Below are positions 17,490 through 63,710 of a stretch of 64,000 bases of DNA, in pieces. Source of the DNA: Candidatus Hydrogenedentota bacterium (GTDB lineage Bacteria; Hydrogenedentota; Hydrogenedentia; Hydrogenedentales; SLHB01); assembly GCA_045863335.1 (NCBI GenBank), contig BTVY01000015.1, positions 69,518 to 133,517 on the forward strand. Direction: 5' to 3'. The translations under genes and the position numbers were made by a program. Position 1 is the first letter of the stretch. Each line of letters opens with the position of its first letter. The notes below the pieces were generated by a model. The model had not been told where the DNA came from. It worked only from the letters and a program-made list of their open reading frames with translations, and did no database searches.

Positions 17490-17555
17490 TTGACTTTTGT
17501 ATTTTCTTTTGTTTAGCATACTGAACTTATGGATTCGCACAGATATTTAAGTTCA
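17490..17555 (+). promoter_or_regulatory. Putative sigma70 promoter plus operator palindrome
   Basis: TTGACT(17490)-18nt-TAGCAT, followed by TGAACTTA-N18-TAAGTTCA (17522-17555), in an AT-rich intergenic region. Confidence 0.45.
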
Positions 17556-17607
17556 CGTAAATAAATTTCCAGAACCGGCCGCATAGGCCAGCAGGAGAAA
17601 ACGAATA

Positions 17608-46315: not shown

Positions 46316-47272
46316 TTACAGGCCGACTTTGGCGGAGAAGTTGGTCAGGAACCGCTCGCCTTCACGCCGGTACTTGTTCATGACGGTACGGCTTCGGTGT
46401 CCTGATTGTCGCATAATGTCCGCCTCGGGGACACCTTCGCGGTAGCCTTGGGTCACGAATCCGGCCCGGAGCGAGTGCCCGGAGAATTGTTCCGGGGACA
46501 ATCCGATCCGCTTCGCAGCCCCCTTGACGATTCGGGAAATGGCGCGGTCCCCAAGTCGACGGGGCAGGACTTCTCCCGCGGGTGACACGGCGCGGAATAC
46601 AGCCCCCTTATCGATGCCGGCAATCTCCAGCCATTTCAGGATCGCTCGTACGGGGCAGGTGTCCTCGTGGGCGCCGTAACCGATGTCCTTGGTTTCGGGT
46701 TCGCCGGTTTGGTTGGTCTTGCTCCTGCGGACGGTCACGACTACGCCTTGGGGCCGGAATTCCAGGTCCTCCACGTCCAGGGCTACCAGTTCGGAGCGCC
46801 GGAACGCGCCGGCCAGTCCCATGAGCAGGATCGCCTTGTCCCGGAGCCCCCTGGGCGAGTCGTCCAGCGCGTTCACAGCTTGCCGGACGTGCTCGACCAG
46901 GAGCGGTGCTGCCTGTCTCTGTACGGTTCCCAACGTTCTGCGGATTCCCTGCATGGTGGCCCGGACAAGGGGTGCGCCCGCCGGACTGGCGAGTCCCGCG
47001 GACTGGTGCGCCACGGAGATCGAAGCAAGGCGGCGCTGTAGGGTCGCGGGTTTGTGGGTCTCGGCGTGGTCGCTGATATACCGGGCCACGGTATCAGGAA
47101 AAGCGGGGAGAGAAGTCTCCCCCCGCTCGCTGCACCATGTCTCAAAGTGCGTCCAGTCGGCGGCGTAGGCCTTCCGGGTGTTCCCGGCCTTAGATGCTTC
47201 GATGAATCCCTTCACGTGGGCGTCAAGGGGCACCAGTGCCGATTCTTCGATGTGTTGAATCTCGTGCGTCAT
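46316..47272 (-). CDS. Cre-like tyrosine recombinase (N-terminal SAM-like + catalytic domain)
   Basis: NTRKAYAADW, RDKAILL..GAFRRSEL, RSKTNQ, SGHSLRAGF, QSGHRS..MNKY (R-K-H-R-H-Y). Confidence 0.95.
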   Translation of the reverse strand: MTHEIQHIEESALVPLDAHVKGFIEASKAGNTRKAYAADWTHFETWCSERGETSLPAFPDTVARYISDHAETHKPATLQRRLASISVAHQSAGLASPAGAPLVRATMQGIRRTLGTVQRQAAPLLVEHVRQAVNALDDSPRGLRDKAILLMGLAGAFRRSELVALDVEDLEFRPQGVVVTVRRSKTNQTGEPETKDIGYGAHEDTCPVRAILKWLEIAGIDKGAVFRAVSPAGEVLPRRLGDRAISRIVKGAAKRIGLSPEQFSGHSLRAGFVTQGYREGVPEADIMRQSGHRSRTVMNKYRREGERFLTNFSAKVGL

Positions 47273-47275
47273 CGC

Positions 47276-47767
47276 CTATCCCCCTACCGCTTGCAGGGCG
47301 GTGGGCGATTCCTCGCTGAACGCGTAGAATCGAGTGCCCTCCCCGATGATTACATGGTCGTGGACCTTGATTCCGAGCATGGATCCCGATTCCGCAAGGC
47401 GGGTCGTGAGCGATTGATCGTCCCTGCTCGGGGTCGGGTCCCCGCTCGGGTGGTTGTGGCACAGAATGACGGATGCGGCGTTGCTCAGGATCGCGGGTTT
47501 GAACACTTCCCGCGGCATGGCGATCGTCGCGTCAATCGATCCGATACTGACGGTGTGAATGCCGATCACGTGTAGCTTGGTGTTCAACATCATCACGCAA
47601 AAGTGCTCCCGGTCCACTTCTCCGAGAAACTCCCGGAAGATGTGCGCGGCCATCCACGGGGCGCGTATCTGCTTGTCGTCGGCCTTCTGGCTACCGTCGC
47701 GGACAAGCGCCACGCGGTAGATCGGGATGCGGTACTTCTTCGATGGGGAAACGGTTGCATCTGTCAT
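47276..47767 (-). CDS. radC: RadC-like JAB domain protein
   Basis: DREHF, PREVFKPAI, HNHPSGDPTPSRDD, DHVIIG. Confidence 0.93.
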   Translation of the reverse strand: MTDATVSPSKKYRIPIYRVALVRDGSQKADDKQIRAPWMAAHIFREFLGEVDREHFCVMMLNTKLHVIGIHTVSIGSIDATIAMPREVFKPAILSNAASVILCHNHPSGDPTPSRDDQSLTTRLAESGSMLGIKVHDHVIIGEGTRFYAFSEESPTALQAVGG

Positions 47768-48641: not shown

Positions 48642-49091
48642 TCCTGCCTATACGGTAGCACAAGGGTCAACCGCTGTCAATACTGAATATGCAAGCAGTG
48701 TTGTGCATGTGTGCGACAGTGTAAACAGAAACAGACACGGGCGCGGGGTTGGATCGTCAGTTGCGGATCGTGTGGGGACACGTTGCCGGATGGCGCGGGC
48801 GCGTGTTTGGGGACGTGTGAGAAGTCGTCAGGGGTGGGGCCGTCACACCGGGGGCCACCCCCGCAGCCGATGCCCCTATGGAGTATGTCCCTCGCTTTCC
48901 AAGGCCGCGCGATTTTTTTCGAGGGCATAACGTCCTATTGGATTCTCTATATTCTGGCTCGATTTGTCGGGAAATCTCGAAAACAGGCGGAGAAGTGAGT
49001 TGCTTGACTCGATGCTCGGCTTGTTGCCACACTTCGTCAGTACTGCGATTGGGGCGTATTGAGGATCATGCTATGAGAGGGAGTTCACGGA

Positions 49092-52000
49092 TTGCCACGA
49101 ATCTTCGATAACATCGAATTGAACTTGCTCCCCGCTTTGCAGCAAACGCTGGAATCATCACACCGGTCCGACTTCTGCGTCGGTTACTTTAATCTCCGGG
49201 GTTGGAAGCGAATCGATCACCTGGTCGAGCGCTGGCCCGGTGACGCGGGTAACCAGTGCCGCCTGCTTGTGGGTATGCAGCGATTACCCCAGGATGAGTT
49301 GAGACTCGCATACAGCCTGCGAGATGCCGACGATGAAATCAGCAACCAAGCAGTTATAAGAATCAAACGACGTTTGGCGGAAGAGTTTCGGAAACAGCTT
49401 ACGTTTGGGGCTCCCAACGATGAAGACGAAGCCGGGTTACGCCGGCTCGCGGCGCAACTCGAATCCGGTAAGCTGGCAGTGAAGCTCTTCGTTCGTCATC
49501 CGCTTCACGCCAAACTCTACCTCTGTTTTCGCACCGATCAAGACAGCCCGATTGTGGGCTACCTGGGATCGAGCAATCTCACCCTCGCTGGTCTTCACCA
49601 ACAGGGCGAACTCAACGTCGATGTGCTTGACCACGATGCGACACAAAAGCTGGCACGATGGTTTGAGGCCCGCTGGAACGACCATTGGTGCATCGACATC
49701 ACCAAGGAACTCATCCAAGTCATCAACGAAAGCTGGGCGCGCCCTGAAGCCATTCTGCCTTATTGGATCTACGTCAAGATGGCGTATCACTTGGCGGAGG
49801 AGGCCCGCGCCGGGCTATCCGAATTCACCATTCCGGCCGACTTGCGCGGCAGACTACTTGAGTTCCAGTCTGCTGCCGTTCGGATCGCAGCCCGCCACCT
49901 GGAGAAACGAAACGGGGTCATTCTGGGTGACGTGGTGGGACTCGGCAAAACCCTGATGGCAACCGCGCTTGCCCGCGTCTTCCAGGATCCGCCCCACTCA
50001 CTCGAGTCTTTGATTATCTGCCCCAAGAACCTTGTCGGAATGTGGCAAGGCTACGCGGAGAACTACCGCTTGATCTGTCGCGTTGAATCGATATCGCGCG
50101 TCCAATCAGTTCTCCCCGATCTCAGACGCTACCGTATCGTTATCATCGACGAGAGCCAAAATCTCCGAAACCGGGAAGGGCGCCGTTGGCGCGCAATCCG
50201 GGACTACATCGTCCGCAATGCGAGCCGTTGTGTCCTCCTTTCGGCGACCCCATACAACAAGACGTACCTCGACCTTGCGAATCAGATTCGGCTATTCCTC
50301 AATCCTGACGATCCCCTTGGTGTACGGCCGGAAGAGTACCTCCGCCGCGAGTGCGACAATCGAGTGGACGAATTCACCCGCAGACACCAATGTCCGGTGA
50401 ATTGTCTCCAGGCGTTCGAGAAGAGCGAGCATCCTGACGACTGGCGAGAACTGATGCGCCTTTTCATGGTCCGGCGCACGCGCAGTTTTGTCGAGCGCAA
50501 TTATGCCTTCACGGAGTGCCCGGAATGTTCCACGGTCCTGCTTGCGACCGACGAGAAGTGCACAAATTGCCAACGTGCGAAGGCCACTTTGGACCGGCGG
50601 TTCTTAATTCTCGAGACCGGCGAGCGCTTCTATTTCCCGAAGCGTAAGCCCAAGACGCTCAAATTCAAGATTCGAGACGACGATCCCAACGACCAGTATG
50701 CTCGACTCTACTCGGACAGGGTGGTCGACATCGTCCGAGCGCTTCACCTTCCGCGTTACGGCCTCGCAAATTATCTCAAGCCCTCCTTCGATGAGCCACC
50801 GACGCCACAAGAAGCGGACGTGATGAACAACCTGTCACGAGCAGGAAGGCGGCTCATTGGATTCTGCCGTACAAACCTGTTCAAGCGGCTTGAGAGTAGC
50901 GGGTATGCGTTCCTCCTATCGGTGCGCCGCCATATCCTTCGCAATTACATCTTTCTTCACGCACTGGAAAACGGGCTGCCGCTCCCCATCGGAACGCAAG
51001 ACGCGGCCCTATTCGATACCCGGAACGATGACGAGGATTTTGACAGTTCGACCACCCCCGTGCTTTTCGAGGACGACGGGGAAAACTCCGGTTTCAGCGC
51101 CTACGTAACCGCAACGACCTTGGAGGAATTTGCACAGGAGGGGGCCAACGGGTACCAGATACTTCGCAGAGACTTGGAAAGCCGATTCGATTGGCTCGGA
51201 GCGCATCTATTCGAAGACGGCTTGGCCCTTCATCTCAAAGAAGACGCCGAACGAATGTTCAAGGTACTCGAGATCGGCGGTGACTGGGACCCCATGACGG
51301 ACGCGAAACTATCCGAATTGGAGAAGCTACTCACGAAGACGCATCCTCGCGAAAAAGTGCTCGTGTTCTCCCAATTCGCGGACACCGTTCACTACCTCGC
51401 GCATCAGCTTGGTGGCCGGGGTCTTACTCACACGGCCCCGGTTACGGGCGATACGGGCGATCCCGCGGCCACCGCCTCGCGATTCAGCCCGGAAAGCAAT
51501 CTGGTACGTGACAAGGTTTCCCCGAACGATGAGCTTCGCGTTCTGATCGCAACGGATGTCTTGAGCGAAGGTCAGAATTTGCAGGACGCCGCGCTCATCG
51601 TCAACTACGACCTTCCATGGGCCATCATCCGGCTTATACAACGCGCGGGCCGCGTGGATCGTATCGGTCAGCATGCGGAAGAGATTCTGTGCTACTCGTT
51701 CTTGCCCGCCGACGGCGTCGAGCGGCTTATCCGGCTTCGCTCGCGGGTGAACCAACGCCTCCGGGAAAATGCTGAAGTCGTCGGCACGGACGAAACGTTT
51801 TTCGAGGATGAACGTCACGATTCCATGATTCGCGATCTCTTCACCGAGAAATCGAGCATCCTCGATGATCCCGAAGACAACGAAGTCGATCTCTCATCCC
51901 TCGCCTACCAAATCTGGAAAAACGCGAGCGACGCCGACCCCACGCTCCGAAAGTCCATACCGGACTTGCCGAACGTCGTATTCTCCACAAAATCCTCGAC

Positions 52001-52583
52001 CGCAGTACCGGCCAAACCAGACTCGCCAGCGGAGCACCGCGCCACCCCCGGGGTGATGGTGTACGTGCGCACTGGCGACGGCAACGATGCCTTGGCCTGG
52101 ATCGACCCGAATGGCCGGACGGTCACCGAGAGCCAGCACGAGATTCTCCGGGCCGCCGCGTGCGAACCGGGCACCCCCGCGCTGCCCCGTATCGAGAATC
52201 ACCATCCGCTGGTGGAACAGGCCGTCATCGCCATTGCCGCGGAACACAAGTCGACGGGTGGCCAGTTGGGCCGGCCCAGCAGCGCCCGGCGCCGTGTTTA
52301 CGAACGTCTCAAGGACTACGCCGCAAGCGTCAAGGACACCTTGTTCGACGTGAAGCCGCTCCATCAGGCCATCGACGCCATCTACGAACAACCACTCACG
52401 GAGTCGGCAAAAGACCTGTTGAATCGCGAATTGCGCACCGGTATTCCCGACGAGAAGCTGGTTGAGTTGGTGATGTCGCTACACGAGGAAGACCGGCTTT
52501 GCGTACCCCAGGACGACGCGGACGCGGGCGAACCCCAGATCATATGCAGTCTCGGAATCCGTGAGGACGAATCATGCCGCTGA
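49092..52583 (+). CDS. PLD-nuclease domain + SNF2-like SF2 helicase
   Basis: LHAKLY and YLGSSNLT (PLD); DVVGLGKT, IIDESQN, SATP, SEGQNLQ, QRAGRVDRIG. Confidence 0.93.
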   Translation: MPRIFDNIELNLLPALQQTLESSHRSDFCVGYFNLRGWKRIDHLVERWPGDAGNQCRLLVGMQRLPQDELRLAYSLRDADDEISNQAVIRIKRRLAEEFRKQLTFGAPNDEDEAGLRRLAAQLESGKLAVKLFVRHPLHAKLYLCFRTDQDSPIVGYLGSSNLTLAGLHQQGELNVDVLDHDATQKLARWFEARWNDHWCIDITKELIQVINESWARPEAILPYWIYVKMAYHLAEEARAGLSEFTIPADLRGRLLEFQSAAVRIAARHLEKRNGVILGDVVGLGKTLMATALARVFQDPPHSLESLIICPKNLVGMWQGYAENYRLICRVESISRVQSVLPDLRRYRIVIIDESQNLRNREGRRWRAIRDYIVRNASRCVLLSATPYNKTYLDLANQIRLFLNPDDPLGVRPEEYLRRECDNRVDEFTRRHQCPVNCLQAFEKSEHPDDWRELMRLFMVRRTRSFVERNYAFTECPECSTVLLATDEKCTNCQRAKATLDRRFLILETGERFYFPKRKPKTLKFKIRDDDPNDQYARLYSDRVVDIVRALHLPRYGLANYLKPSFDEPPTPQEADVMNNLSRAGRRLIGFCRTNLFKRLESSGYAFLLSVRRHILRNYIFLHALENGLPLPIGTQDAALFDTRNDDEDFDSSTTPVLFEDDGENSGFSAYVTATTLEEFAQEGANGYQILRRDLESRFDWLGAHLFEDGLALHLKEDAERMFKVLEIGGDWDPMTDAKLSELEKLLTKTHPREKVLVFSQFADTVHYLAHQLGGRGLTHTAPVTGDTGDPAATASRFSPESNLVRDKVSPNDELRVLIATDVLSEGQNLQDAALIVNYDLPWAIIRLIQRAGRVDRIGQHAEEILCYSFLPADGVERLIRLRSRVNQRLRENAEVVGTDETFFEDERHDSMIRDLFTEKSSILDDPEDNEVDLSSLAYQIWKNASDADPTLRKSIPDLPNVVFSTKSSTAVPAKPDSPAEHRATPGVMVYVRTGDGNDALAWIDPNGRTVTESQHEILRAAACEPGTPALPRIENHHPLVEQAVIAIAAEHKSTGGQLGRPSSARRRVYERLKDYAASVKDTLFDVKPLHQAIDAIYEQPLTESAKDLLNRELRTGIPDEKLVELVMSLHEEDRLCVPQDDADAGEPQIICSLGIREDESCR

Positions 52584-55500
52584 ATTTCGCCCGCGCCAGA
52601 CCGTTGCTCCAGCAAGGCAAGCTCAAACAGCTCTTCGTGGAGGAACTGGGGTGGGAGCCGTACCGCAAGTCGATGGATGTCCCCATTGGCGAAGAGCCGA
52701 TCCGCCTGACCGGTATCGCCCAAAAGAAAGGGATGGTGGTCTGGCAGTGTGAGAGCCCCGACAGCCAACTCCCGGATCGGGCCACCCGGCTCAAGTTGCA
52801 CCGGGCCGTCATGCAAACGACCTACGAACATCTCCTGGTGTTCGTGGCGGGAGACCGCTCCTGTCAATCGTGGATGTGGGTCCATCGCGAGCCGGGGCGT
52901 CCCATCCGGGGATGCACACACGAGTACTTCAACGGGCAGATCGGCGATGCGCTTCTCCAGCGGCTGCAACACCTCTTCGTTTCGCTTGAGGAAGAGGAGA
53001 GCGGCCTGTCCATCGCCGAGGTCGCCGACCGCGCGCGAACCGCCTTCAATGTGGAACCGGTCGTAAAGAAGTTCTACGAGCAATTCCGCAAAGAACACGC
53101 GGCCTTTCTCAAGTTCATCAGCGGCATTACCGACGCGGCGGATCGCGAGTGGTACGCCTCGGTCATGCTGAACCGCCTGATGTTCGTCTATTTCATCCAG
53201 TACAAAGGCTTTCTCGACGGAGACCACCAATACCTTCGGAACCGTCTTGCCCAGATGCAGCGGAATCACGGCAAGGACAAGTTCTATTCGTTCTACCGGT
53301 ATTTCCTGCTCCGTCTGTTCCACGAGGGGTTGGGCAAGCCGAAACGGCCGGCCGAACTGGAAAAGCTGGTGGGAAAGATCCCGTACCTCAACGGGGGAAT
53401 CTTTGACGAACACGAACTTGAACGGCCCGAACGGTACGGCAAGGACATTCAGATCCCGGACAAGGCCTTCGAGCGGGTCTTTGATTTCTTCGACCGGTGG
53501 CGGTGGCACCTGGACGAACGGCCCCTGCGGGAAGGCAATGAGATCAATCCCGACGTGCTCGGGTATATTTACGAGAAGTACATCAACCAGAAGCAAATGG
53601 GCGCGTACTACACGAAGGAAGACATCACCGAGTACATCAGCAAGAACACGGTGATCCCCTACTTGCTTGACGCCGCCCGCACGAAGTGCCGTGTCGCCTT
53701 TGAGAATCCCAACGGCCCTACGGTTTGGGACCTGCTCAAGAACGATCCAGACCGTTACATCTACCCCGCCGTGCGCCATGGCGTAGACCAACCACTCCCC
53801 AAGGACATCGCCAAAGGCGTCAATCCCCCCACGATTCACAAGCCCGTGGGGAACGGTCCCGTCCAAACGCTTGAGTTACGCAAGTCATGGAACAAACCCG
53901 CGCCGCCAGAGTACGCCTTACCCACGGAGATCTGGCGTGAAGTTGTGGCCCGCCGCCAGCGATGCGAGGAGATCCGCACGAAGCTGCTCGCCGGGGACGT
54001 CCGCGACATCAATGATCTCGTGACCCTCAATCTCGATATTCGACAATTCGCGCAGGACGCGATCGAGAATTGCGAAGGACCCGACTTGCTCCGCGCGTTC
54101 TGGAAGTCCGTCGAAGGAATCTCCATCCTCGATCCGACCTGTGGTTCCGGCGCCTTTCTCTTTGCCGCGCTGAATATCCTCGAACCCCTGTACGAAGCCT
54201 GTCTTGACCGGATGGAAGCGTTTCTGCAGGACGAGGCCACCCGCGCAACTAAGAAGCTCAAAACAACGCCCCACGGCTACCCGCTGCTGCCCCACGGCAA
54301 GTTCGAAGACTTTTCCAAGGTGCTCGATCACGTCGCCGCGCACCCGAGCCGCCGCTATTTCATTTACAAGAGCGTCATCCTCAACAACCTCTATGGCGTG
54401 GACATCATGGAGGAAGCGGTCGAAATCTGTAAGCTCCGCCTCTTCCTCAAACTGGCCGCCCAGGTTGACCCGGATGCCGGGAAACCCAACTTCGGCATCG
54501 AACCGCTACCGGATATCGACTTCAACATCCGCGCGGGCAACACGCTAGTGGGCTTTACCTCAATGGAGGAAATTCGCAGGGCGCTCGGCGGCGACTTGGT
54601 CAGACAGTTCGACCTACCCGCTATAGAGGAAAAGTCGGCCGACACCGACCTCGCATTTAGGCGCTTCCGGGAAATGCAAACGAGGCTCGGCATGGACAGC
54701 GAGGAATTCGCAGAGGCCAAGCGCGAACTGCGAAGGCGGCTTAAGACTCTGAACGACGAGCTAAACCAATACCTTGGCGCGGACTATGGCGTGAATTCGA
54801 GCAATCGGGCCGGATTTCAGAACTGGCTGAAGTCCCATCAACCGTTTCATTGGTTCGTCGAGTTCTATGGCACTCTCAGTACGGGCGGGTTCAGCGCGAT
54901 TATCGGTAACCCTCCTTACGTTGAGCTTACGAAAATCAAAGAGTACTCGATACGGAGGTTAGATTCGACTGTTTGTGGAAATCTTTACTGCCCCATGGTT
55001 GAGCGTTTTACAACGCTAGGTTCGCGCAATTTTCGACTCGGAGTAATCGTTCCGCTTAGTCTTTCGTCAACTGAACGAACCCGAGGGTTGCGGGATATTC
55101 TCGTAACCCGACTCGGGACCGCATGGGTGAGTCATTATTCTGGTGATGCCCATCCGTCCAAACTATTCGAAGGAGTGAAATTTCGGCTTGACATACTAAT
55201 CGGTCAAGGGGGTTCGGACTTTACCCTGTTTTCTAGCCAGTATCTAAAATGGTTCGCCGGTGCGCGTCATAACTTGTTTAGCCAGATCAACTACGAATCC
55301 GTCCCCACCAATCTTTGGCACCTAAACCAATTTCCGAAAATTGGCACAATACTAGGGCGATCTATTTTGTCCAAATTACTAAGCCGCCCTTCGCTTGGTC
55401 TGCTGCTCTCTCAAGGTGGCGAGACCGTTTACGTTCATCGAGTCATTACAATGTTCATCAAGGCTTTCGACTTTGTGCCTTATTTTTGCAGTGAAGAGCA

Positions 55501-55951
55501 CGGAGCCAAGAAGTCCGACGACTATAAGCCGTTCCAGTTTGCATCCGGCGACCAAAGGGACGTTGTCGCGGCAATTCTGAACAGTTCGACGTTTTTTCTG
55601 TACTTTGTGATTCTAGGGGACTGTTTTCATTGCGGTAAAGGCTACGTACTGAATTTCCCATTTGATTTCGCCAAGCTGTCGGAGAGTATGGTCCGGCGAT
55701 TCTCGGCGTTATGTCATCGGCTTATGGTCGATCTCCGCAACAATGCAATACGAAGGCGCGCCGTCTCGGGCCAGACGGGTGCTATAGAATATGACGAGTT
55801 TTGGCCCAGCAAATCCAAACCGATTATCGACGAGATTGATCATCTCCTCGCCCGCCACTACGGTTTCACCGAGGAAGAACTGGATTACATCATCAACTAC
55901 GACATCAAGTACCGCATGGGCCGCGACGGGATCGAGGAGGACGGCGATTGA
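52574..55951 (+). CDS. Large N6-adenine DNA methyltransferase (Eco57I/type IIG-like)
   Basis: PYLNGGIF, GAYYT, DPTCGSGAFL, YGVDI, GNPPY; overlaps the helicase stop. Confidence 0.93.
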   Translation: MPLNFARARPLLQQGKLKQLFVEELGWEPYRKSMDVPIGEEPIRLTGIAQKKGMVVWQCESPDSQLPDRATRLKLHRAVMQTTYEHLLVFVAGDRSCQSWMWVHREPGRPIRGCTHEYFNGQIGDALLQRLQHLFVSLEEEESGLSIAEVADRARTAFNVEPVVKKFYEQFRKEHAAFLKFISGITDAADREWYASVMLNRLMFVYFIQYKGFLDGDHQYLRNRLAQMQRNHGKDKFYSFYRYFLLRLFHEGLGKPKRPAELEKLVGKIPYLNGGIFDEHELERPERYGKDIQIPDKAFERVFDFFDRWRWHLDERPLREGNEINPDVLGYIYEKYINQKQMGAYYTKEDITEYISKNTVIPYLLDAARTKCRVAFENPNGPTVWDLLKNDPDRYIYPAVRHGVDQPLPKDIAKGVNPPTIHKPVGNGPVQTLELRKSWNKPAPPEYALPTEIWREVVARRQRCEEIRTKLLAGDVRDINDLVTLNLDIRQFAQDAIENCEGPDLLRAFWKSVEGISILDPTCGSGAFLFAALNILEPLYEACLDRMEAFLQDEATRATKKLKTTPHGYPLLPHGKFEDFSKVLDHVAAHPSRRYFIYKSVILNNLYGVDIMEEAVEICKLRLFLKLAAQVDPDAGKPNFGIEPLPDIDFNIRAGNTLVGFTSMEEIRRALGGDLVRQFDLPAIEEKSADTDLAFRRFREMQTRLGMDSEEFAEAKRELRRRLKTLNDELNQYLGADYGVNSSNRAGFQNWLKSHQPFHWFVEFYGTLSTGGFSAIIGNPPYVELTKIKEYSIRRLDSTVCGNLYCPMVERFTTLGSRNFRLGVIVPLSLSSTERTRGLRDILVTRLGTAWVSHYSGDAHPSKLFEGVKFRLDILIGQGGSDFTLFSSQYLKWFAGARHNLFSQINYESVPTNLWHLNQFPKIGTILGRSILSKLLSRPSLGLLLSQGGETVYVHRVITMFIKAFDFVPYFCSEEHGAKKSDDYKPFQFASGDQRDVVAAILNSSTFFLYFVILGDCFHCGKGYVLNFPFDFAKLSESMVRRFSALCHRLMVDLRNNAIRRRAVSGQTGAIEYDEFWPSKSKPIIDEIDHLLARHYGFTEEELDYIINYDIKYRMGRDGIEEDGD

Positions 55952-56067
55952 CTCGGGATGGCGCAGCGAGGATTGGAGATTGCGTCGGAAGGGTGTGTAG
56001 GTGTCCTTAACTTCGGCCTTTGCGGTTCTCGCTGTTATCGCCGACTTCAACGGGAGACCAATTAAAC

Positions 56068-56889
56068 GTGCTATCGCGTGCCACCGCCATACGCTTCGAC
56101 CGGCCGATCTCCACTGGTAAGACTCGGCCATGTTTCATCGGCTGCGTAAAGGATGACGGTTCGGAAGTCGAGTTGGTTGTGAAATTCGCGGCAGGCTGCG
56201 AAACGAGGCACGCGTCGTTGATGCGGGAAGCGGTGGCGGCGATGCTCGCGGCCGACTTGGATCTGCCCGTGCCAGAGCCGTACTTGGTCATGGTCGAGCC
56301 GGAATTCGCGGCGACGATTCCGGATCGCGAAGTGAAAGACTTGGCGCAAGCAAGCATAGGATGGAACTTCGGTTCGGCAAAACTACCGCCGGGCTTCTCC
56401 ACAATGCCGTGCGATAGACCCTTGGCGCGCGACCTGCTGCAAACGGCAGGAGAAATCCTCGCTTTTGACACCTTTATCTGCAATGACGACCGCCGGGTGA
56501 CCAATCCGAATCTGCTTTCGAACGGCAGGGAGTTTGCCATATTCGATCACGAACTGGCATTCTTTATGAGACTAAGACTTGACTGGAAATCGCCGTGGGA
56601 GCCTGGAGCAATCCAGTTCAATCTCGCCGGGCCAACCGATTCGCGGCATGTGTTTCTCGATCAGTTGGCACGACATTCCGTCAACCTGGACCGGCTCTCT
56701 GGAGCCATTGAGGCGATCACGTCCGAGCGGCTTGCCGAGTACAAGAGCGTCCTGCCGGATGAGTGGCTGAATGACGGGGCTGAGATTGATTCCATTCTGG
56801 ATTACATTGGACAGTTGCGGGACCGTTTCCCCGAGGCTGTACGCGAGTTCACGCGGGCCATCACTGAAGTCAAAGGAGCGTTGCCATGA
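56068..56889 (+). CDS. HipA-like kinase
   Basis: GKTRP loop, VVKF, REAVAAMLA, FDTFICNDDR..NPNLL, IFDHE. Likely GTG start at 56068. Confidence 0.85.
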   Translation: MLSRATAIRFDRPISTGKTRPCFIGCVKDDGSEVELVVKFAAGCETRHASLMREAVAAMLAADLDLPVPEPYLVMVEPEFAATIPDREVKDLAQASIGWNFGSAKLPPGFSTMPCDRPLARDLLQTAGEILAFDTFICNDDRRVTNPNLLSNGREFAIFDHELAFFMRLRLDWKSPWEPGAIQFNLAGPTDSRHVFLDQLARHSVNLDRLSGAIEAITSERLAEYKSVLPDEWLNDGAEIDSILDYIGQLRDRFPEAVREFTRAITEVKGALP

Positions 56890-57737
56890 AAACACCGTAC
56901 ACCTATTCGGTATTGCGCTACGTTCACGACACGACTACCGGCGAATTCATCAACGTGGGCGTCGCCTTGCTTGCACCAAACGAAAGGTACGTGAGTGCCA
57001 TCTGCCGTCCCACTTACGGCAGATTGACGAAGACATTTCCGGGTATGGATGGCGAAGCATTCAAGGGACTCATGCGGTTCATCCAATCCCAGTTCGAGGA
57101 AATGGGCGGCCATCTGTGTGGTGACTTGCCTTTCGACGAGGCACCCAAATCCATTATGGAACTCGCGCATAAGGTGCTGCCACCGGACGATAGTTCGTTA
57201 CAATGGTCGCCGGCAGGGAGCGGACTGACCGAAAACCCGTCTCAAACATTGGAACGTCTGTTCGAGCGTATGGTTGTTGCGTATGATGAAAAACCGCAGC
57301 GTGAAGTTCGATCGGACGACCAAGTCTGGCACCGGTACAGACGCGATCTCGAAACCCGCCACGTAATAAGGCACCTCAAACCAAAGCGTATCGCCGTAGA
57401 AGATGATGAAGTGGAGTTTCGGTACGCGTGGAAGAACGGGATTTGGCATTGTCTGGAGCCTGTTTCACTTGATCTTGCGCTAGCCGACAGCATACGCGAC
57501 AAGGCGCATCGCTGGCTCGGTCATATCTCGAGCGTTCAGAACGCCGCAGAACCGTTCAAGATTTACTTTCTACTCGGTCAGCCGCAACGTGCAGATCTCC
57601 AATCGGCATATAAGAGCGCGATCAGCATCTTGGGCAAGATCCCCAGTGAGAAAGAGATTGTGACCGAGGACAACGCGGAACGCTTTTCGGACCAGTTCGC
57701 GCGCGAAATCGAAGCGGCCGAGCATTCGAATACGTAA
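56886..57737 (+). CDS. DUF3037 domain protein (partner of HipA-like kinase)
   Basis: YSVLRYVHD..GEFINVGV, SSLQWS, LERLFERMV; ATGA overlap with the kinase. Confidence 0.88.
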   Translation: MKTPYTYSVLRYVHDTTTGEFINVGVALLAPNERYVSAICRPTYGRLTKTFPGMDGEAFKGLMRFIQSQFEEMGGHLCGDLPFDEAPKSIMELAHKVLPPDDSSLQWSPAGSGLTENPSQTLERLFERMVVAYDEKPQREVRSDDQVWHRYRRDLETRHVIRHLKPKRIAVEDDEVEFRYAWKNGIWHCLEPVSLDLALADSIRDKAHRWLGHISSVQNAAEPFKIYFLLGQPQRADLQSAYKSAISILGKIPSEKEIVTEDNAERFSDQFAREIEAAEHSNT

Positions 57738-57742
57738 TCTCG

Positions 57743-57907
57743 ATGGAGCGTTGTGATACTGGCGACTATTCGTTCGTGCGGTTGGCACGCGGTGATTCCT
57801 CCTATCCAGCGGTTTTGACACATCGCCTAGGGGAATCTGCCCCAAAGCTGACGGCGCGAGGAAACCGGGATCTCCTGCCTTCGGCCAAGACGGCCCTATT
57901 CTGCTCG
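57743..57907 (+). pseudogene. Truncated 5' copy of the SLOG/DprA-like gene
   Basis: SYPAVLTHRLGESAPKLTARGNRDLLPSAKTALFCS vs AYPAPVRRRLGDAAPNLTARGNLDLLALPKTAIFCS (60115 gene); similarity ends at ~57907. Confidence 0.85.
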
Positions 57908-58230
57908 GTGCGGTTGTCGATACGATATGAGAAGTCACCATTGGGAATATGGGGCGCGTCATCTACGTGTTCGAGGTGCAGACGAAGGGCTCTCTGGATA
58001 GCCTCAACCTCAATCTCCTCAAGGCCCTCAAAAATCCGGCCGTTCAAGGGGTTGTCGCCGTTTCGGACACCGTCCAGCTTGAGAAGATCAAGCGCGAAGT
58101 GGAGACGGTAACCGCACTGCGCGAGAAGCTGAAGTACTGGGATTACGCCGAGGTCCTGGAAGTCCACGCCGCACTCGAATCCGTCAACGAAGTCATCAAT
58201 AGCCTCGGCCTCGTCTCCCAGGGGTTCTGA
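57907..58230 (+). pseudogene. C-terminal remnant of a PD-(D/E)xK-like nuclease
   Basis: GAVVDTI*EVTIGNMGRVIYVFEVQTKGS...; VD...FEVQ motif, TGA at 57928 where Trp would fit, N-terminus missing. Confidence 0.6.
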
Positions 58231-58384
58231 GATGCCGTTGGCCACGAGTGCCCGCGTCCAAGGGTGATTCGATCGGCCCCGTCACTTTCTGGAGTGGTTT
58301 GCGGTACTATTCCCACCGAAAGTCAATCTCCGGAATTCGACTTCCGGGCTCCGGGATAGAGCTGAACGTGGCGAGGACAACACG

Positions 58385-58975
58385 TTGGATCGCGCTGAAG
58401 TCAGGGAACTGCATTACATAACACCGCTCGAGAATGTCCCGAGCATTCTCGACCGCGGAATCCTCTCCCATGCGCGTGCGGCGCGGATCGAACACGAATC
58501 AGTGGCTTTGGAGGAGGTTCAATCCCGTCGCAAAGTGAAGCAAATACCGGGGGCGCGGCCGCTACACGAGTACGCCAACCTTTATTTCGACGCGCACAAC
58601 CCGATGCTGTGCCGCCGGCAGGATGAAAACGACCGGATTTGCGTTTTGCGGGTTAGCGCCGATGTGCTGGATCTACCGGGCGTTATCGTGGCGGACATGA
58701 ATGCATCCAGCGATTACGTCACGTTTCGCCCGGTCGCGTCCGGATTGAAGCTATTGGACAGTTCGCGGGTGTTTGCGCGATACTGGACTCATCGGGATAA
58801 TCCAATCGACGAATTCCGGCACAAATCTGAGAAGTGTGCCGAGGTATTGGTACCCGATTTGGTGGCACCGGATTTCATCATTGCGGCGTACGTGGCGAAT
58901 CAAAGGGCCTTGTCCGGCTGGCAGCGCTTGAAGGTCCACGTCGAAGCCGAGATTCGGCATGGGTTCTTCTTCTAG
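58385..58975 (+). CDS. darT: DarT ssDNA ADP-ribosyltransferase toxin (DUF4433)
   Basis: HYITPLENVPSILDRGILS, LHEYANLYF..NPML, DMNASS, KCAEVLV (catalytic E). Confidence 0.92.
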   Translation: MDRAEVRELHYITPLENVPSILDRGILSHARAARIEHESVALEEVQSRRKVKQIPGARPLHEYANLYFDAHNPMLCRRQDENDRICVLRVSADVLDLPGVIVADMNASSDYVTFRPVASGLKLLDSSRVFARYWTHRDNPIDEFRHKSEKCAEVLVPDLVAPDFIIAAYVANQRALSGWQRLKVHVEAEIRHGFFF

Positions 58976-58985
58976 GAGTGGCGAG

Positions 58986-60104
58986 ATGAAGGTGCTTGTG
59001 GGAGACCTCCTCCAGTCCAGTGCGCAGACCTTGGTCAACACGGTGAACTGTGTTGGCGTGATGGGGAAGGGCATTGCGCTGGAGTTCAAGAAGCGGTTTC
59101 CCGACATGTTTGAAGAGTACGTACGGCGCTGCAAGGCGGGCGAGGTGCGGCCGGGGATACCGTATCTCTACCGGGCGGTATTCCCCCCTCAGATCGTGAA
59201 TTTCCCCACGAAGGATCATTGGAAGTCGGTATCGAAGATTGAGGACATCGAGAAAGGGTTGCAGTATCTCGTCGACCACTACCGCGACTGGGAGATCGCG
59301 TCTCTCGCGGTTCCGCCGCTCGGCTGCGGGAACGGCCAACTCGAATGGCGCGAGGTAGGGCCGATGATATACCGCTATCTCAGCCCTCTTGACGTTCCGG
59401 TTGAGCTGTATGCCCCCTACGGAACGCCTCCGAAGGAATTGACTGCGGAGTTTCTTTCGACGGCCCATGCGCCGGCGCGTACGCGGGCTGCAGCGAATGG
59501 TCGTGGGGGCCTGAATCCAGCCTGGGTTGCCTTGGTCGAGATCGTCGCCAGGCTGGACGCCCAGCCCTATAGCTGGCCGGTAGGTAGGACGATCTTTCAG
59601 AAAGTGGCGTTTGTGGCCACGCGCGAAGGGTTGCCCACCGGATTGGAGTATGCGAAGGGCAGTTTTGGGCCGTTCAGCAGCCGTCTGAAGAGCGTTGAAA
59701 CGCGACTCGTGAATGACAACCTGCTTCAGGAGGAACGGCGCGGCAAGATGTTCAAAGTGAGCGCCGGACCTAACTACGAGCGCGTCCGCAAAGATTACGA
59801 GGAGGCCTTGTCGCGCTGGTCCGATATCATCGAGAAGACGACTGACCTCTTCGCACGGGTGGACACGAATCAGGCTGAGATTACAGCGACGGTTCTTTTT
59901 GCCGCCGACCTGATGAAGCGCGAGCGAACGGAAACGCCTTTGGAGGGCGAATTGCTGGAGGCCGTTCTGCAATGGAAGCAGAAACGCACTCCGCCGCTCT
60001 CCGAAGAGAAGGTCGCCTCGGCAATACGGAATCTTGCGATGCTGCGCTGGTTGGATGTGAAATACGATCCGAAACTGCCCGTACCAGAGGAAGAATTGGT
60101 CTGA
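58986..60104 (+). CDS. darG: DarG macrodomain antitoxin
   Basis: GDLL..LVNTVNCVGVMGKGIALEFK, NFPTKDHW, AVPPLGCGNG; C-terminal FQK..FGPFS domain. Confidence 0.95.
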   Translation: MKVLVGDLLQSSAQTLVNTVNCVGVMGKGIALEFKKRFPDMFEEYVRRCKAGEVRPGIPYLYRAVFPPQIVNFPTKDHWKSVSKIEDIEKGLQYLVDHYRDWEIASLAVPPLGCGNGQLEWREVGPMIYRYLSPLDVPVELYAPYGTPPKELTAEFLSTAHAPARTRAAANGRGGLNPAWVALVEIVARLDAQPYSWPVGRTIFQKVAFVATREGLPTGLEYAKGSFGPFSSRLKSVETRLVNDNLLQEERRGKMFKVSAGPNYERVRKDYEEALSRWSDIIEKTTDLFARVDTNQAEITATVLFAADLMKRERTETPLEGELLEAVLQWKQKRTPPLSEEKVASAIRNLAMLRWLDVKYDPKLPVPEEELV

Positions 60105-60114
60105 CGCTGATTCG

Positions 60115-60681
60115 ATGGATCCGAGGTCAAGAGATTCTCTTACCGTAATCTCTCCCGAGAATGCGGCCTATCCCGCGCCGGTGCGACGCCGTTTGGGTGA
60201 CGCGGCGCCAAACCTTACGGCGCGAGGAAATCTCGACCTACTGGCTCTGCCCAAGACGGCCATATTCTGCTCTGCGCGATGTCCAGGAAACGCAATCCTC
60301 GCCGCATACGACGAAGCCACGAAGCTGCGTGACTCCGGGCGTTGCGTCATTGGCGGCTTTCATTCCCCCATCGAAAAGGATTGCCTGCGCATCCTTCTGC
60401 GCGGCAAGCAACCGATCATCATCTGCCCGGCCCGCGCGATCGAGACGATGCGTGTACCGGCCGATTGCCGCGCGGCCTTCGACGCGGGGCGTATCCTCTT
60501 TCTCTCGCCATTCGTGGACGCACCAAAGCGCGTCACTCGAGAGGCCGCCTTGCGCCGTAACATACTTGTGGCCGCACTCGCGGACGACGCGTACATTGCG
60601 CACGTTGCGCCTGGGGGCCAAACCGATGAGACGCTCACAGTCCTAAGCAATTGGCTCGTCCCGACCAGAACGAACGAGTAG
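60115..60681 (+). CDS. Short SLOG/DprA-like protein
   Basis: AIFCSARCPG, VIGGFHSPIEKDCL, IICPAR, ALRRNILVAALAD..PGG. Confidence 0.82.
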   Translation: MDPRSRDSLTVISPENAAYPAPVRRRLGDAAPNLTARGNLDLLALPKTAIFCSARCPGNAILAAYDEATKLRDSGRCVIGGFHSPIEKDCLRILLRGKQPIIICPARAIETMRVPADCRAAFDAGRILFLSPFVDAPKRVTREAALRRNILVAALADDAYIAHVAPGGQTDETLTVLSNWLVPTRTNE

Positions 60682-61073
60682 AACGACAGAGTGCGCGCGT
60701 CCCCGGAACGGCGAATTGATGACCGGATTCACGATGACGACCTGCCCCGAAGATGCTCCCCCTTGAGAGATGCCAACAGATGGGTTGACGTAAGGACCTG
60801 ATCTGTATTACAACAGCCTCACCTCCTGAGGATTGGGGAATCGAAGGGAGGGTCATGCGATGAAACTTCAGCCTGTGCCGCCGCTTGATCTGTTTTTGTC
60901 CGTTAATGCTCTCCCGTGGCTTGGCCTGCACAGGCCCGTTCCAGTCGCAAGACGTTCCGGAATCGCGGCTTGCGAAGGGGCTTTCCTATATCGAGCGAGA
61001 TGGAGTGTATCAAGACTACGCTCGAGCATTCCTCAGTTTTTCATCTATTTACCAGAGAAAACGAGGGCGTAGG

Positions 61074-63710
61074 GTGAAGAAGCAGAAGCTCAACCTGCGA
61101 CGGCAGGACGGCGAATTGAAGAATCCGGGGGCGGCTGGGCATCGCTTCGCCCGCTTGGACTACCTGACCGCTCTAGGCGCTGCCCTGGTTGCCTTGGCCG
61201 TGTATGTGCCGACTCTGGGGCCGACGGTTACGGGGGAAGACAGCGGGGAGTTGGTCACGGCGGCGTATACGTTGGGGATTGCGCATCCGCCGGGGTATCC
61301 GATCTGGTGTCTGTTGGGGCATTTGTTCACGCATATCCCTTTTGGGACCGTGGCGTGGCACGTGAACTTCATGTCCGCGTTCTTTGCAGCGGTGACGGTC
61401 GGGCTGGTGTGTTTGATCATCCTCCGGCTGACGCGGAACCGGGTCGCCGCCGTAGCCGGTGCGTTGGCCTTCGCGTTCTCCCGGGAGTTCTGGGAACAGA
61501 GCGTCATCGCTGAGGTGTACACGCTGAATGCGTTCTTCATCGCCCTGTGCGTGCTGCTGCTGTTTCTGTGGTACGAGTCCCGCAAGCCGCGCCTGCTGCT
61601 CCTTTTCGCCTTCGTTTACGGCCTCAGCCTCACCAACCACAGCACGATGCAACTCCTCGGCGTCGTCTTCGCCGGGTTTGTCTTGTTCAACGACCGCCAC
61701 CCCTGGCGGCAGTGGCCGGTCTACCTCGGCATGGCCGGGCTCTGCCTGCTCGGTCTGTCCGTCTACCTCTACCTGCCCATCCGGTCGGCCGCCGACCCGC
61801 CCATGGACTGGGGCAACCCGGAGTCCTGGGAAAATTTCAAGGACGTGGTCACTCGCGCCCAGTACAAGTTCATGTTCACCGAGCACCCCCGCAGCCTGAG
61901 CCTGTTCCTCCAGCAATGCGGCGTGTTCCTCCGGCTCTACGTCTGGGAGTTCACGCCCTGGCTCGCCTGGGTGCCCCTCGTGGGCATCTACGCCCTCTGG
62001 CGGCGCGACCGGCTTCGCACCGCCTTCCTGGTCGTCCTCACGGCCATCGTCCTCTTCGCGGTTTTGGTGGTCAACAATTTCGCCATAGACCCCCTCGCCA
62101 TATGGGTAAACAACGTCTTCTGGATTCCCGTCTACATGATGGCAGGGATCTACATCGGCGCCGCCATCGATTTATTGAGTGCGACCTGCAACCGCATACA
62201 AACTGCACCCCTAAAGAACATCCCCCACGGCCCTGCGGGCCTGCCCCCTTCAAAGGGGGAATTCGCGCTGGCTACGCCGCGCGGTGAGCCGCACACGAGT
62301 ACCGCACGTGTGCAAGAATCCATGGACAGCACAACCATTCCGGGTTCCTCTGAATCCCCCTTCGAAGGGGGATCAAGGGGGATGTTCTTCAAAGGACGCG
62401 CGAAGAAACCGGGATTCTTGGCGTATGCCCGGAGCGACAGTTCAGGCAGTCCTTGGCGAATGCTCATCGCCTTGATAGCCGCCCTCATCGTCGTGGCTTC
62501 GCCCTTCGCCATGAACCGGTCCTTCGTGGACAAGAGCGACTACTACTTCGCCTACGACTACGGCAAGAACGTCCTCGACATGATGGACGAGAACGCCATC
62601 TACTTTCCCACGGCGGACCATGCCACGTTCCCGGTGATCTACCTTCAAGCGGTGGAGGGACTCCGGCCCGATGTCACCATCGCCAACAAGTACGGCTACC
62701 CGGAGGAACACCTGTACGCGAACATGCCGGAGGACCATCGCAAGCGCTTCCGCAAGATCCCTACGGAGGCCGAAGAGCAGGTCATTGAGGACTGGATCAT
62801 CACGCAGAATCCGGACCGGCCTGTGTACTTCACGAAGAAGCGGCCGATGCCGGGCGTACCGGGTGCGCAGATGGTCAATACCGGACTCCTCTACCGAGTC
62901 GTGCGCGACGGAGAAACGCCGCCGGAGCGCGACTGCTGGGCAGAGTACACGTGGCACACGCTGGACGAATCCGACACGCGTGGCGAACTCACCGCCCAAA
63001 TGATCCTTGCGGACTACCACTTCTCGCGGGGCAGGACGTTGATGGATGAGGGAGACACAGAACAGGCCATGGCGGCGTTCGACACCGCCCTCCGCATCGG
63101 CGAGGGCGGCAAGGAGACGCTGAACAACCTCGGCAGTGTCTGCGCGGAGTACGGGCAACTGGAGGCGGCGGAGCGGTACTACACGCAGGCGTTAGAGGCG
63201 GACCCGGAGTATGGCACGTCGCTGCGGAACCTGGGAAAGGTTTACGTTCAGACCGGCCAGCACCGCGAGGCGTTGCCCCTGTTCGAACGGCTGCTAAAGC
63301 AGGACCCCTTGGAACCCGAGGCAAACTGGCTGGCCTTCACCTCCCTGAAGGAGCAGGGTCGTATCGACGAGGCGATAGCGCAATTGGAGCGGATGGACTC
63401 GTTCCCGCCCGGTTGGGGCCGCGTCGCGGATCGCGCACGCATCTACCGCGAATTGGGGATGATCTACCTCAACGAAGAGCGACAGCCCGCCATGGCGCAC
63501 CGGTACTTCGCGCGAAGTCTATCCATCGATGCCAATCAGCCGGAACTGCAACGGCTCATCGCGGACCTGCAAGCAGGCGGGTCACCGATGGACGACCCGA
63601 ACGCTCCACTCATGCCCAGCGACCTCATGCCCGGCCTTCCAGGAGTACCCCCGTCGATCCCAACGCCCCAGATACCCAAACCGGGTATCGACACACCCAC
63701 TGTCCCCTGA
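61074..63710 (+). CDS. DUF2723/TMEM260-like GT-C glycosyltransferase with C-terminal TPRs
   Basis: EDSGEL..LGIAHPPGYP, WEQSVIAEVYTLN, YLPIRS..PMDWGNP, DHATFP..YLQAVEG.RPDV; TPR repeats; Pro-rich tail. Start uncertain. Confidence 0.9.
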   Translation: MKKQKLNLRRQDGELKNPGAAGHRFARLDYLTALGAALVALAVYVPTLGPTVTGEDSGELVTAAYTLGIAHPPGYPIWCLLGHLFTHIPFGTVAWHVNFMSAFFAAVTVGLVCLIILRLTRNRVAAVAGALAFAFSREFWEQSVIAEVYTLNAFFIALCVLLLFLWYESRKPRLLLLFAFVYGLSLTNHSTMQLLGVVFAGFVLFNDRHPWRQWPVYLGMAGLCLLGLSVYLYLPIRSAADPPMDWGNPESWENFKDVVTRAQYKFMFTEHPRSLSLFLQQCGVFLRLYVWEFTPWLAWVPLVGIYALWRRDRLRTAFLVVLTAIVLFAVLVVNNFAIDPLAIWVNNVFWIPVYMMAGIYIGAAIDLLSATCNRIQTAPLKNIPHGPAGLPPSKGEFALATPRGEPHTSTARVQESMDSTTIPGSSESPFEGGSRGMFFKGRAKKPGFLAYARSDSSGSPWRMLIALIAALIVVASPFAMNRSFVDKSDYYFAYDYGKNVLDMMDENAIYFPTADHATFPVIYLQAVEGLRPDVTIANKYGYPEEHLYANMPEDHRKRFRKIPTEAEEQVIEDWIITQNPDRPVYFTKKRPMPGVPGAQMVNTGLLYRVVRDGETPPERDCWAEYTWHTLDESDTRGELTAQMILADYHFSRGRTLMDEGDTEQAMAAFDTALRIGEGGKETLNNLGSVCAEYGQLEAAERYYTQALEADPEYGTSLRNLGKVYVQTGQHREALPLFERLLKQDPLEPEANWLAFTSLKEQGRIDEAIAQLERMDSFPPGWGRVADRARIYRELGMIYLNEERQPAMAHRYFARSLSIDANQPELQRLIADLQAGGSPMDDPNAPLMPSDLMPGLPGVPPSIPTPQIPKPGIDTPTVP
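62200..62390. repeat. REP doublet (CCCCCTTCRAAGGGGG family) inserted in-frame within the CDS
   Basis: AGAACATCCCCC..GCCCCCTTCAAAGGGGGAATTC ... GAATCCCCCTTCGAAGGGGGATCAAGGGGGATGTTCT, preceded by AACTGCACCCC. Confidence 0.88.

Follow-up and report, generated by a model that had tools for sequence, protein, structure and literature searches.

A 64,000-nucleotide stretch of DNA from a Candidatus Hydrogenedentota bacterium (assembly GCA_045863335.1, contig BTVY01000015.1, positions 69,518 to 133,517 of the forward strand), here called the window, carries at 49092–60681 an array of nine co-oriented reading frames, all on the plus strand. The array probably consists of a three-gene core resembling a restriction–modification (RM) system, namely a PLD nuclease–SNF2 helicase, a DNA methyltransferase (MTase) of the N6-adenine type and a DprA-like SLOG protein, with two toxin–antitoxin (TA) modules, HipA-like kinase/DUF3037 and DarTG, nested between the MTase and SLOG genes. 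We put the probability of this reading at about 0.7. In many genomes the helicase, MTase and SLOG genes are found linked in this order, and the MTase–SLOG junction is the usual site of varied defence and TA genes. An initial annotation of the window, made by a model from the letters and their open reading frames (ORFs), had given the same genes, and its gene order, strand and coordinates were borne out (Table 1). So were the gaps of 5–10 nt that it described between the second gene of each module and the SLOG start that follows: 5 nt lie between the DUF3037 stop (57737) and the start of a truncated SLOG copy (57743), and 10 nt between the DarG stop (60104) and the start of the intact SLOG gene (60115).

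Two samples of related loci, 159 in total, were examined for linkage. The first comprises 79 genome loci fetched with the SLOG protein, of which 35 have at least 8 kb upstream and could be assessed; the second comprises 80 metagenome loci fetched with the MTase and is blind to SLOG. Among the 35 assessable SLOG-seeded loci, 15 have both helicase and MTase nearly complete and encoded on the same strand, one has a full MTase with the helicase position falling past the locus edge, ten hold partial genes or deletion scars, and nine have neither gene, giving helicase and/or MTase sequence in 26 of the 35. The other 44 loci are too short upstream, and pieces of the MTase or helicase were still found in 12 of them. 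In the MTase-seeded sample, a SLOG profile search placed SLOG downstream on the same strand in 35 of the 80 loci, including 27 of the 40 in which the helicase comes first or the order is undetermined and for which 2.5 kb or more of sequence is available downstream. The initial annotation had proposed two alternatives, and the first of these, a helicase–MTase–SLOG core that takes up variable modules between its second and third genes, is supported by both independent samples (27/40 and 26/35).

The spacing of the three genes looks like that of an operon. In the window the helicase and MTase genes overlap by 10 nt, and they lie within 43 nt of each other in 58 of 76 related loci. The gap between MTase and SLOG, which is 4.2 kb in the window, ranges from −63 nt to 8.7 kb: the two genes abut or overlap (−63 to +30 nt) in 11 of 35 MTase-seeded loci and are less than 150 nt apart in 11/35 MTase-seeded and 10/36 SLOG-seeded loci. 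No conserved gene was found to follow SLOG: when the first ORFs beyond it were compared across 82 loci, the largest cluster had three members. In the window, SLOG is followed by a TMEM260-like glycosyltransferase with TPR repeats. Inserts of 0.4–1.4 kb between helicase and MTase were observed in 16 of the 76 loci, and that junction may be a second, minor insertion point.

In a phylogenetic tree of the MTase, SLOG-bearing loci are spread over all clades with the helicase-first order. Eight loci in which the methylase comes first (L093, L096, L098, L099, L111, L113, L148 and L155) form one clade together with four other loci that lack SLOG or could not be assessed, while the remaining 11 loci without SLOG are dispersed one by one among loci that have it. 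This scatter fits an old association with sporadic loss, or SLOG genes lying beyond the available sequence. One of the methylase-first loci, L148, has a second methylase-like gene, 37% identical, after the helicase.

Several observations weigh against a three-gene core. Of the 40 assessable MTase-seeded loci, 13 yielded no SLOG, and neither did any of the eight methylase-first loci, only three of which reach further than 1.5 kb past the helicase; the gene is thus not obligatory. Of 7 clear scar loci, 5 have an intact SLOG gene, as do 5 of 9 loci without helicase or MTase, compared with 15 of 19 loci with the full pair. SLOG may therefore have a role of its own, and this pattern fits such a function as well as it fits slow decay. 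Only three longer SLOG proteins were found; none is an informative fusion to a partner, and one is a deletion scar. A Mantel-type comparison of pairwise distances (13 loci and the window) gave a weak MTase–SLOG correlation (Spearman rho 0.33, p 0.014) and 0.17 for helicase–SLOG, and because the helicase–MTase control was itself weak (0.21), this test was set aside as uninformative. Co-transcription of the array genes is assumed from their spacing, and a scan returned 5 sites resembling promoters (4.9 in shuffled sequence) and 14 resembling terminators (13.5), which is chance level. Predictions of a complex between MTase residues 330–1125 and SLOG, both given as alignments, scored 0.29 and 0.19 against a mark of 0.32 and count neither in favour of binding nor against it.

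The chief rival explanation builds on the same observations. It holds that SLOG is a stand-alone, one-gene function, for example one linked to single-stranded DNA (ssDNA) and RecA, which does no more for the array than mark the far edge of a recombination hotspot. Besides the helicase–MTase loci that have no SLOG and the intact SLOG genes that have no pair, there are five loci (L008, L012, L014, L047 and L057) in which SLOG follows other defence genes with housekeeping genes further upstream; in addition, the DprA-like protein ShosA counteracts its toxin ShosT independently of direct binding, according to the parts of that report available to us (PMC12961424). Against this explanation, SLOG in loci that have the pair is on the same strand in nearly all cases, following either the MTase directly or a set of co-oriented cassettes, and the stop of the MTase and the start of SLOG overlap or lie within 30 nt in the 11 loci noted above. 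Moreover, at least seven of the pair-less loci show helicase or MTase scars and so began as triads, and a tblastn search of PLSDB returned no match to SLOG on plasmids. We therefore consider an independent SLOG unlikely, while regarding it as the most serious competitor of the three-gene core.

The second element of the preferred reading, nesting of modules between MTase and SLOG, was assessed by tabulating the genes at this junction across loci, a check that the initial annotation had proposed and that revealed varied cassettes. An insert of 0.15–8.7 kb separates MTase from SLOG in 24 of 35 MTase-seeded and 26 of 36 SLOG-seeded loci, and in 19 of those 35 MTase-seeded loci the gap is 1–8.7 kb. 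The cargo includes a 560-residue protein with AlbA_2 and HATPase_c_4 domains (11 loci, Pfam) and YhcG/DUF1016 (PDC-S02; 4 loci, Pfam and PADLOC), as well as RhuM (PDC-S05), AAA_13 (PDC-S06), MNT/HepT (PDC-S09), DUF3644 (PDC-S19), DUF5131 (PDC-M30/M41) and AAA_15/21 with DUF4276 (HEC-01). Ser/Thr kinases similar to PD-T4-6, a PifA-like KAP ATPase, GmrSD/NsnA, a ThsB-type TIR protein, PLD and Mrr nucleases and AIPR proteins are also present, together with a few insertion sequences, and small TA pairs (MazF, ParE, PIN, DUF4258/DUF2283, DUF6883/DUF4926) are frequent. Every non-transposase ORF with a Pfam annotation between MTase and SLOG is on the operon strand. The Pfam scan of the SLOG-seeded loci left out 8 of 158 candidate ORFs, all short and on the minus strand (L012:9757-10002, L015:4469-4699, L018:2124-2375, L027:1488-1760, L030:8316-8591, L062:5812-6039, L066:763-990 and L070:8563-8802). 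In a PADLOC scan of 98 hand-picked plus-strand cassette ORFs, 45 matched a model, mostly from families derived from embedded genes (PDC-S02, S05, S06, S09, S19, PDC-M30/41 and HEC-01).

Nesting of defence genes as such is already known. Such genes have been described inside Hma, BREX, DISARM and type I RM systems, 96.7% of them sharing the orientation of the host genes (10.1101/2024.01.29.577857), and in the parts of that work available to us the helicase–MTase–SLOG host is not among these. In both cases the nested genes are co-oriented and belong to the same families (PDC-S02 YhcG, PDC-S05 RhuM, PDC-S06 AAA_13, HEC-01 and GmrSD-like). The difference lies in the host and in the flanks, where duplicates of the MTase tail and an SLOG stump here record the arrival of cassettes.

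The tabulation also bears on the second alternative of the initial annotation, in which SLOG would recur as the third component of the DarTG and HipA/DUF3037 modules and act as a sensor; a role as second antitoxin was considered along with it. The window itself invites this idea, since both SLOG starts follow a module so closely, and DarTG directly precedes SLOG in two further loci (L064 and L084), with half of a DarG before SLOG in a third (L091). These three are the only such cases among the 159 loci, however, and homologues of HipA_2/DUF3037 were found in none. SLOG is immediately preceded either by the MTase or by a gene from one of at least 20 unrelated families, and HipA/DUF3037 defends as a two-gene unit in the available portions of two studies (PMC13092281, PMC12548924). 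This alternative was thus not borne out, and we regard it as very improbable.

That unrelated defence genes came to lie side by side by chance, as part of an ordinary defence island, is the account of the array to which we give the least weight of all. Defence genes cluster in general, and an integrase gene and a RadC-like gene lie just upstream. The three-gene order nevertheless recurs in dozens of loci from different phyla, with spacings that are tight or overlapping.

The window may retain a trace of how one cassette arrived. The SLOG remnant after DUF3037 matches the start of the intact protein encoded at 60115 in 25 of 48 residues (BLASTP, E 6e-14; 60% over 40 residues by tblastn), and the underlying DNA repeat (57801–57912 against 60167–60278) is 72% identical over 112 nt. 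With a DNA identity of only 72%, the two SLOG starts did not arise by a recent duplication in place; they are diverged copies. The stump ends where the tail of a 364-residue gene begins (57907–57913), and DarT, DarG and the complete SLOG gene come next. This tail (57907–58227) is 81% identical by tblastn to residues 258–364 of protein P0125, a member of a family with 1167 longer relatives, mostly of about 364 residues, in more than 1100 clusters that share 74–84% identity and carry no annotation. The stump and the tail are in different reading frames, so they meet at a junction and do not form an in-frame fusion. The initial annotation had described this site as an SLOG fragment joined to a nuclease fragment; the first half of that description holds, whereas the nuclease label was not confirmed, the piece being the tail of the unannotated family. 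P0125 matched no Pfam or PADLOC family, and nothing found for its family supports a nuclease; of three members scanned, one had a marginal match to an OGG-like Pfam model (PF21790, 27.7 bits), and the family is absent from all 159 related loci.

A mirror image of this SLOG-stump scar is seen in the related loci, where extra copies of the MTase C-terminal tail lie between cassettes or just before SLOG in 19 of the 108 loci that match the last 60 MTase residues. Tail copies within a locus are mostly 55–94% identical in reliable comparisons; values of 0.28, 0.32 and 0.42 came from misregistered slices and were ignored. In L084, the order is tail fragment, DarT, DarG and SLOG, and the tail ORF matches positions 1031–1099 of the PADLOC model PDLC03628, to which the MTase of the window belongs. 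The duplicated SLOG start and the extra MTase tails point to import of cassettes by recombination between related loci. On the simplest reading, the resident array would originally have consisted of helicase, MTase, HipA, DUF3037 and SLOG, and would then have received from another locus a block made up of the 3′ end of a foreign gene, DarT, DarG and SLOG. The left join would have been illegitimate, inside the resident SLOG gene at about codon 57, leaving the stump, and the right join would have occurred in or beyond SLOG. More generally, homology in the conserved MTase tail and in SLOG could anchor exchanges between related loci, occasionally with an illegitimate join on one side.

Four sequencing runs provided further views of these boundaries. 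All four consist of contigs and carry no transcription information; the parts of the window that they leave uncovered were not counted as evidence, and habitat labels of runs with a small word share were not used. Contigs from four metagenome or RNA runs (X2–X5) match only a segment of about 65 nt in the MTase tail, within 55856–55928, with unlike sequence on both sides; the depth of this segment sums up to 490 in run X2, and the tail shares at least 90% nucleotide identity with many other loci in those samples. A 3.8-kb contig from a sludge metagenome (run X3) is about 98% identical to 58253–61500. To the left of 58253 it continues with 36 nt resembling 60709–60744 (a joint that 'goes back 2492') and then with unlike sequence. 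The joint could be the cassette boundary of another strain, a tandem or circular DarTG–SLOG block, or an assembly artefact.

A more elaborate possibility is that the array is a dedicated platform for capturing cassettes, in which a DprA-like recombination mediator promotes uptake at the MTase-tail/SLOG site, as a homology-anchored counterpart of the integron. Cassettes do concentrate at a single junction, duplicates of the flanks recur in the form of extra tails (19 of 108 loci) and of the window's SLOG stump, and the sludge contig joins 36 nt resembling 60709–60744 to 58253. DprA-family proteins load RecA onto ssDNA. On the other side, the core encodes no recombinase, and a diffusible protein alone would not confine recombination to a single locus. 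A repeat search between the cassettes of the window gave, besides the SLOG duplicate, only short, near-chance matches and no shared intergenic or att-like repeat, and synonymous codon identity in the MTase tail is not an outlier (0.51, compared with a mean of 0.42 and 0.57 in the best block), so that neither approach gave any sign of a dedicated recombination site. The same nesting is also found in systems without any DprA-like gene, as far as the available parts of the embedding study describe them (10.1101/2024.01.29.577857). We hold such a platform to be improbable. An extended version, a self-renewing immune platform in which the DprA-like protein would bind ssDNA, recruit RecA, gate the PLD–SNF2 nuclease and promote cassette capture as a RecA-dependent integron counterpart, appears equally doubtful.

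Loss of the core has left scars of its own. In L016, L021, L034, L058, L061, L070 and protein P0242, among others, the first 60–330 helicase codons are joined to the last 25–170 MTase codons or straight to SLOG, with the operon start, the cassettes and SLOG retained. These deletions are independent, because their breakpoints differ, and the cost of carrying the restriction core may be the reason for its repeated loss.

The helicase of the window has N-terminal PLDc_2 and RE_NgoFVII matches followed by SNF2-rel_dom and Helicase_C (Pfam), its best PADLOC model is 'HKD+Snf2' C3a139 (3e-47), and the motifs HAK...GSSN, GLGKT and DESQ are present. It is 46–71% identical to the helicases of related loci, most of which have a homologue of this gene upstream of the MTase. 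The MTase contains an Eco57I domain (Pfam, 1.1e-20) with NPPY at residue 779 and matches the REBASE-derived PADLOC model REase_MTase_IIG PDLC03628 over its full length (1072.9 bits; residues 3–1118 against model positions 3–1097 of 1100). In an alignment of 39 MTase sequences, the N-terminal and catalytic parts are conserved and are followed by a variable stretch at about residues 860–1070 and by a conserved tail of about the last 50 residues; the variable region is presumed to be responsible for target recognition. A simple pattern search, which is not a structural test, found no PD..(D/E)xK nuclease motif in the MTase, which has no relative of solved structure. The only nuclease domain detected, like the motor, is on the separate PLD–SNF2 protein. 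The G+C content is about 0.50 at 54500–56000, which covers the variable 3′ part of the MTase gene and its junction with the first cassette, and 0.56–0.63 around it. In locus L103, an ORF at 16165–17571 joins the first ~200 residues of the MTase family (PDLC03628 positions 6–209) to sigma-70 regions 2 and 4 (an MzaA-like match); the N-terminal domain of the MTase can therefore occur in another setting.

The AlphaFold model of the SLOG protein has a pLDDT of 95, and its best fold match is ShosA (8zva, TM score 0.81), followed by DprA proteins (0.75–0.78; 4ljl 0.77), with the SLOG domains of LOG, YpsA, Moco-carrier and ThsA proteins ranking far behind. The protein is the Rossmann domain only, without the multi-domain architecture of DprA. 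It matches the PADLOC model for PsyrA at 3.7e-15 and falls below the DprA cut-offs (Pfam DNA_processg_A, 27.8 versus 29.6 bits; TIGR00732, 17.5 versus 191 bits). A separate match of 25% identity lies in a 340-residue frame elsewhere in the genome, which may be the true DprA of this organism. The SLOG family has at least 2610 clusters, which the sources name DprA. ShosA needs ssDNA binding, dimerisation and contact with RecA, as described in the portions of its report that were available (PMC12961424), and by analogy SLOG most likely binds ssDNA and perhaps RecA. In locus L014 (3623–8646), SLOG lies downstream of an apparent type III RM pair, an 808-residue N6_N4 methylase and an 866-residue ResIII helicase, instead of the PLD–SNF2 pair.

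The three-gene system might work as follows. The MTase would mark a specific motif on host DNA, and the PLD–SNF2 protein would cut unmarked DNA, as is proposed by analogy with PLD-motor nucleases such as MtsD of the MANTIS system. Like the DprA-like ShosA, SLOG would bind ssDNA and perhaps RecA, and it would tune the system or serve as its back-up; possible roles are to gate the nuclease or bring it to ssDNA intermediates, or to shield host DNA where repair takes place. The nested modules would be expressed together with the core and provide a second line by abortive infection.

Among described systems, MANTIS, also termed Gao_RL or the Type-2 BREX-related (BR) system, comes nearest. It comprises MtsA (DUF499), MtsB, the MTase MtsC and the PLD–SF2 helicase MtsD and needs both the DUF499 ATPase and a DUF3780-type protein, according to the available parts of two reports (10.64898/2026.09.23.753747, PMC12839542). 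As far as those parts go, MANTIS and the window have in common a large N6-adenine methylase, a motor of the SF2/SNF2 type with an N-terminal HKD/PLD domain as the predicted effector, and RM-like logic, a likeness at the level of architecture only. A Pfam scan of ORFs between 40 and 64 kb of the window revealed neither the DUF499 (ORC/Cdc6-type) ATPase MtsA nor a DUF3780-type MtsB. The window further differs from MANTIS in its Eco57I/type IIG-like PDLC03628 methylase and in the DprA-like SLOG as third gene, and the available text of the MANTIS papers makes no mention of the latter ('DprA' occurs 0 times in that of PMC12839542).

Other known systems share individual parts. ShosTA and PsyrTA have the same DprA-type Rossmann fold, and PsyrA is paired with a helicase toxin in a PADLOC annotation table (PMC11232893, consulted in part). 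The SLOG of the window differs from both in being a bare 188-residue domain without a PRTase (ShosT) or RecQ-like (PsyrT) neighbour, preceded instead by DarG. Type IIG and Type ISP RM enzymes resemble the MTase in the full-length PDLC03628 match and in the Eco57I-type catalytic domain with NPPY, and differ in that the detected nuclease domain and the motor of the window are on the separate PLD–SNF2 protein. Class 1 DISARM has the same domain types (DrmD SNF2, DrmMI methylase and DrmC PLD); in the window, however, no DrmA/DrmB or DUF1998-type gene was seen, and the helicase scores 105 bits against the NCBIfam DrmD cut-off of 610. Similarly, no PglZ or BrxC was present among the scanned ORFs, and the MTase reaches 43.5 bits with NCBIfam BREX-1 PglX, for which the cut-off is 500. 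The opinion of the initial annotation that the set fits no canonical system thus largely stands, as DUF499/DUF3780, DrmA/B and PglZ/BrxC are all lacking; it needs correction in that PADLOC would call the MTase a type IIG RM enzyme and would recognise PDC-M66 (the HipA/DUF3037 module) and DarTG. Literature searches, which did not extend to the BREX and MANTIS supplements, where such a triad could be listed, found no published description of a helicase–MTase–DprA-like triad. The helicase–MTase–SLOG host appears to be unnamed. The architecture itself, a conserved helicase–MTase–DprA-like core whose second junction collects defence cassettes, is well supported; it is a variation on two known themes, the RM-like PLD-motor system and defence embedding.

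If the triad is a working system, it would be a widespread RM-like defence with an unusual third part, given the size of the DprA-like family, and restriction would be linked to the sensing of ssDNA or RecA through a protein with the DprA fold. The MTase–SLOG junction offers a new place to mine for defence genes by embedding, with about half of the tested cassette ORFs lacking a PADLOC model. The scars at the flanks (MTase tails, the SLOG stump and helicase-to-tail deletions) are a rare record of the gain of nested cassettes and of the loss of a costly core.

Table 1 Features of the defence array, with positions counted from the first nucleotide of the window
Feature	Position	Strand	Remarks
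PLD (HKD-type) nuclease–SNF2 helicase	49092..52583	+	1163 aa; predicted restriction motor-nuclease
N6-adenine DNA methyltransferase, Eco57I/type IIG-like	52574..55951	+	1125 aa
MTase C-terminal tail coding DNA	55856..55951	+	Extra copies between cassettes elsewhere
HipA-like kinase, toxin of cassette 1 (PDC-M66A; DS-6A/HipAD in the literature)	56020..56889	+	Pfam HipA_2 3.7e-18; PADLOC PDC-M66A 6.5e-71, positions 9-267/270
DUF3037 protein, predicted antitoxin of cassette 1 (PDC-M66B)	56886..57737	+	Pfam DUF3037 2e-19; PADLOC PDC-M66B 1.3e-89
SLOG remnant, about codons 1-57 of an older SLOG gene	57743..57913	+	Starts 5 nt past the DUF3037 stop
C-terminal 107 codons of a 364-aa conserved hypothetical family	57907..58230	+	Left end of the presumably imported DarTG segment
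DarT, ssDNA ADP-ribosyltransferase, toxin of cassette 2	58385..58975	+	Pfam DarT 5.5e-32; PADLOC DarT 3.5e-34
DarG, macrodomain antitoxin of cassette 2	58959..60104	+	Pfam Macro; PADLOC DarG 1.3e-91
DprA-like SLOG, intact, stand-alone	60115..60681	+	188 aa; last gene of the array

Both nested modules of the window are recognisable as complete gene pairs. The matches to PDC-M66A and PDC-M66B are both near full length, and a HipA_2-kinase gene followed by a DUF3037 gene is the order of PDC-M66, or DS-6 (HipAD). The available parts of two studies describe this combination as a validated two-gene TA defence (PMC13092281, PMC12548924), and in one of them deletion of the DUF3037 gene is toxic (PMC12548924). 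In the second cassette, a DarT gene followed by a macrodomain DarG gene constitutes a DarTG pair. DarT scores 111.6 bits in Pfam (cut-off 22.5) and 96 bits with NCBIfam toxin_DarT, below the cut-off of 150, and DarG reaches 298 bits with NCBIfam antitoxin_DarG, above the cut-off of 250. DarTG, too, is known to work as a two-gene pair.

The array is accessory DNA, because the MTase was found in only 3 of 30 related genomes and in none of the 5 from the same genus, some of these genomes being incomplete. Five small ORFs at 48677–49111, upstream of the helicase, gave no Pfam match at E 0.1. Further upstream on the minus strand are a gene for a RadC-like JAB protein (47276–47767) and one for a tyrosine-type integrase (46316–47272; Phage_integrase, 9.4e-18), and small unannotated ORFs reach back to a transglycosylase gene at 43196–44041. 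A larger integrated island, at about 44–60.8 kb of the window, may include the defence array.

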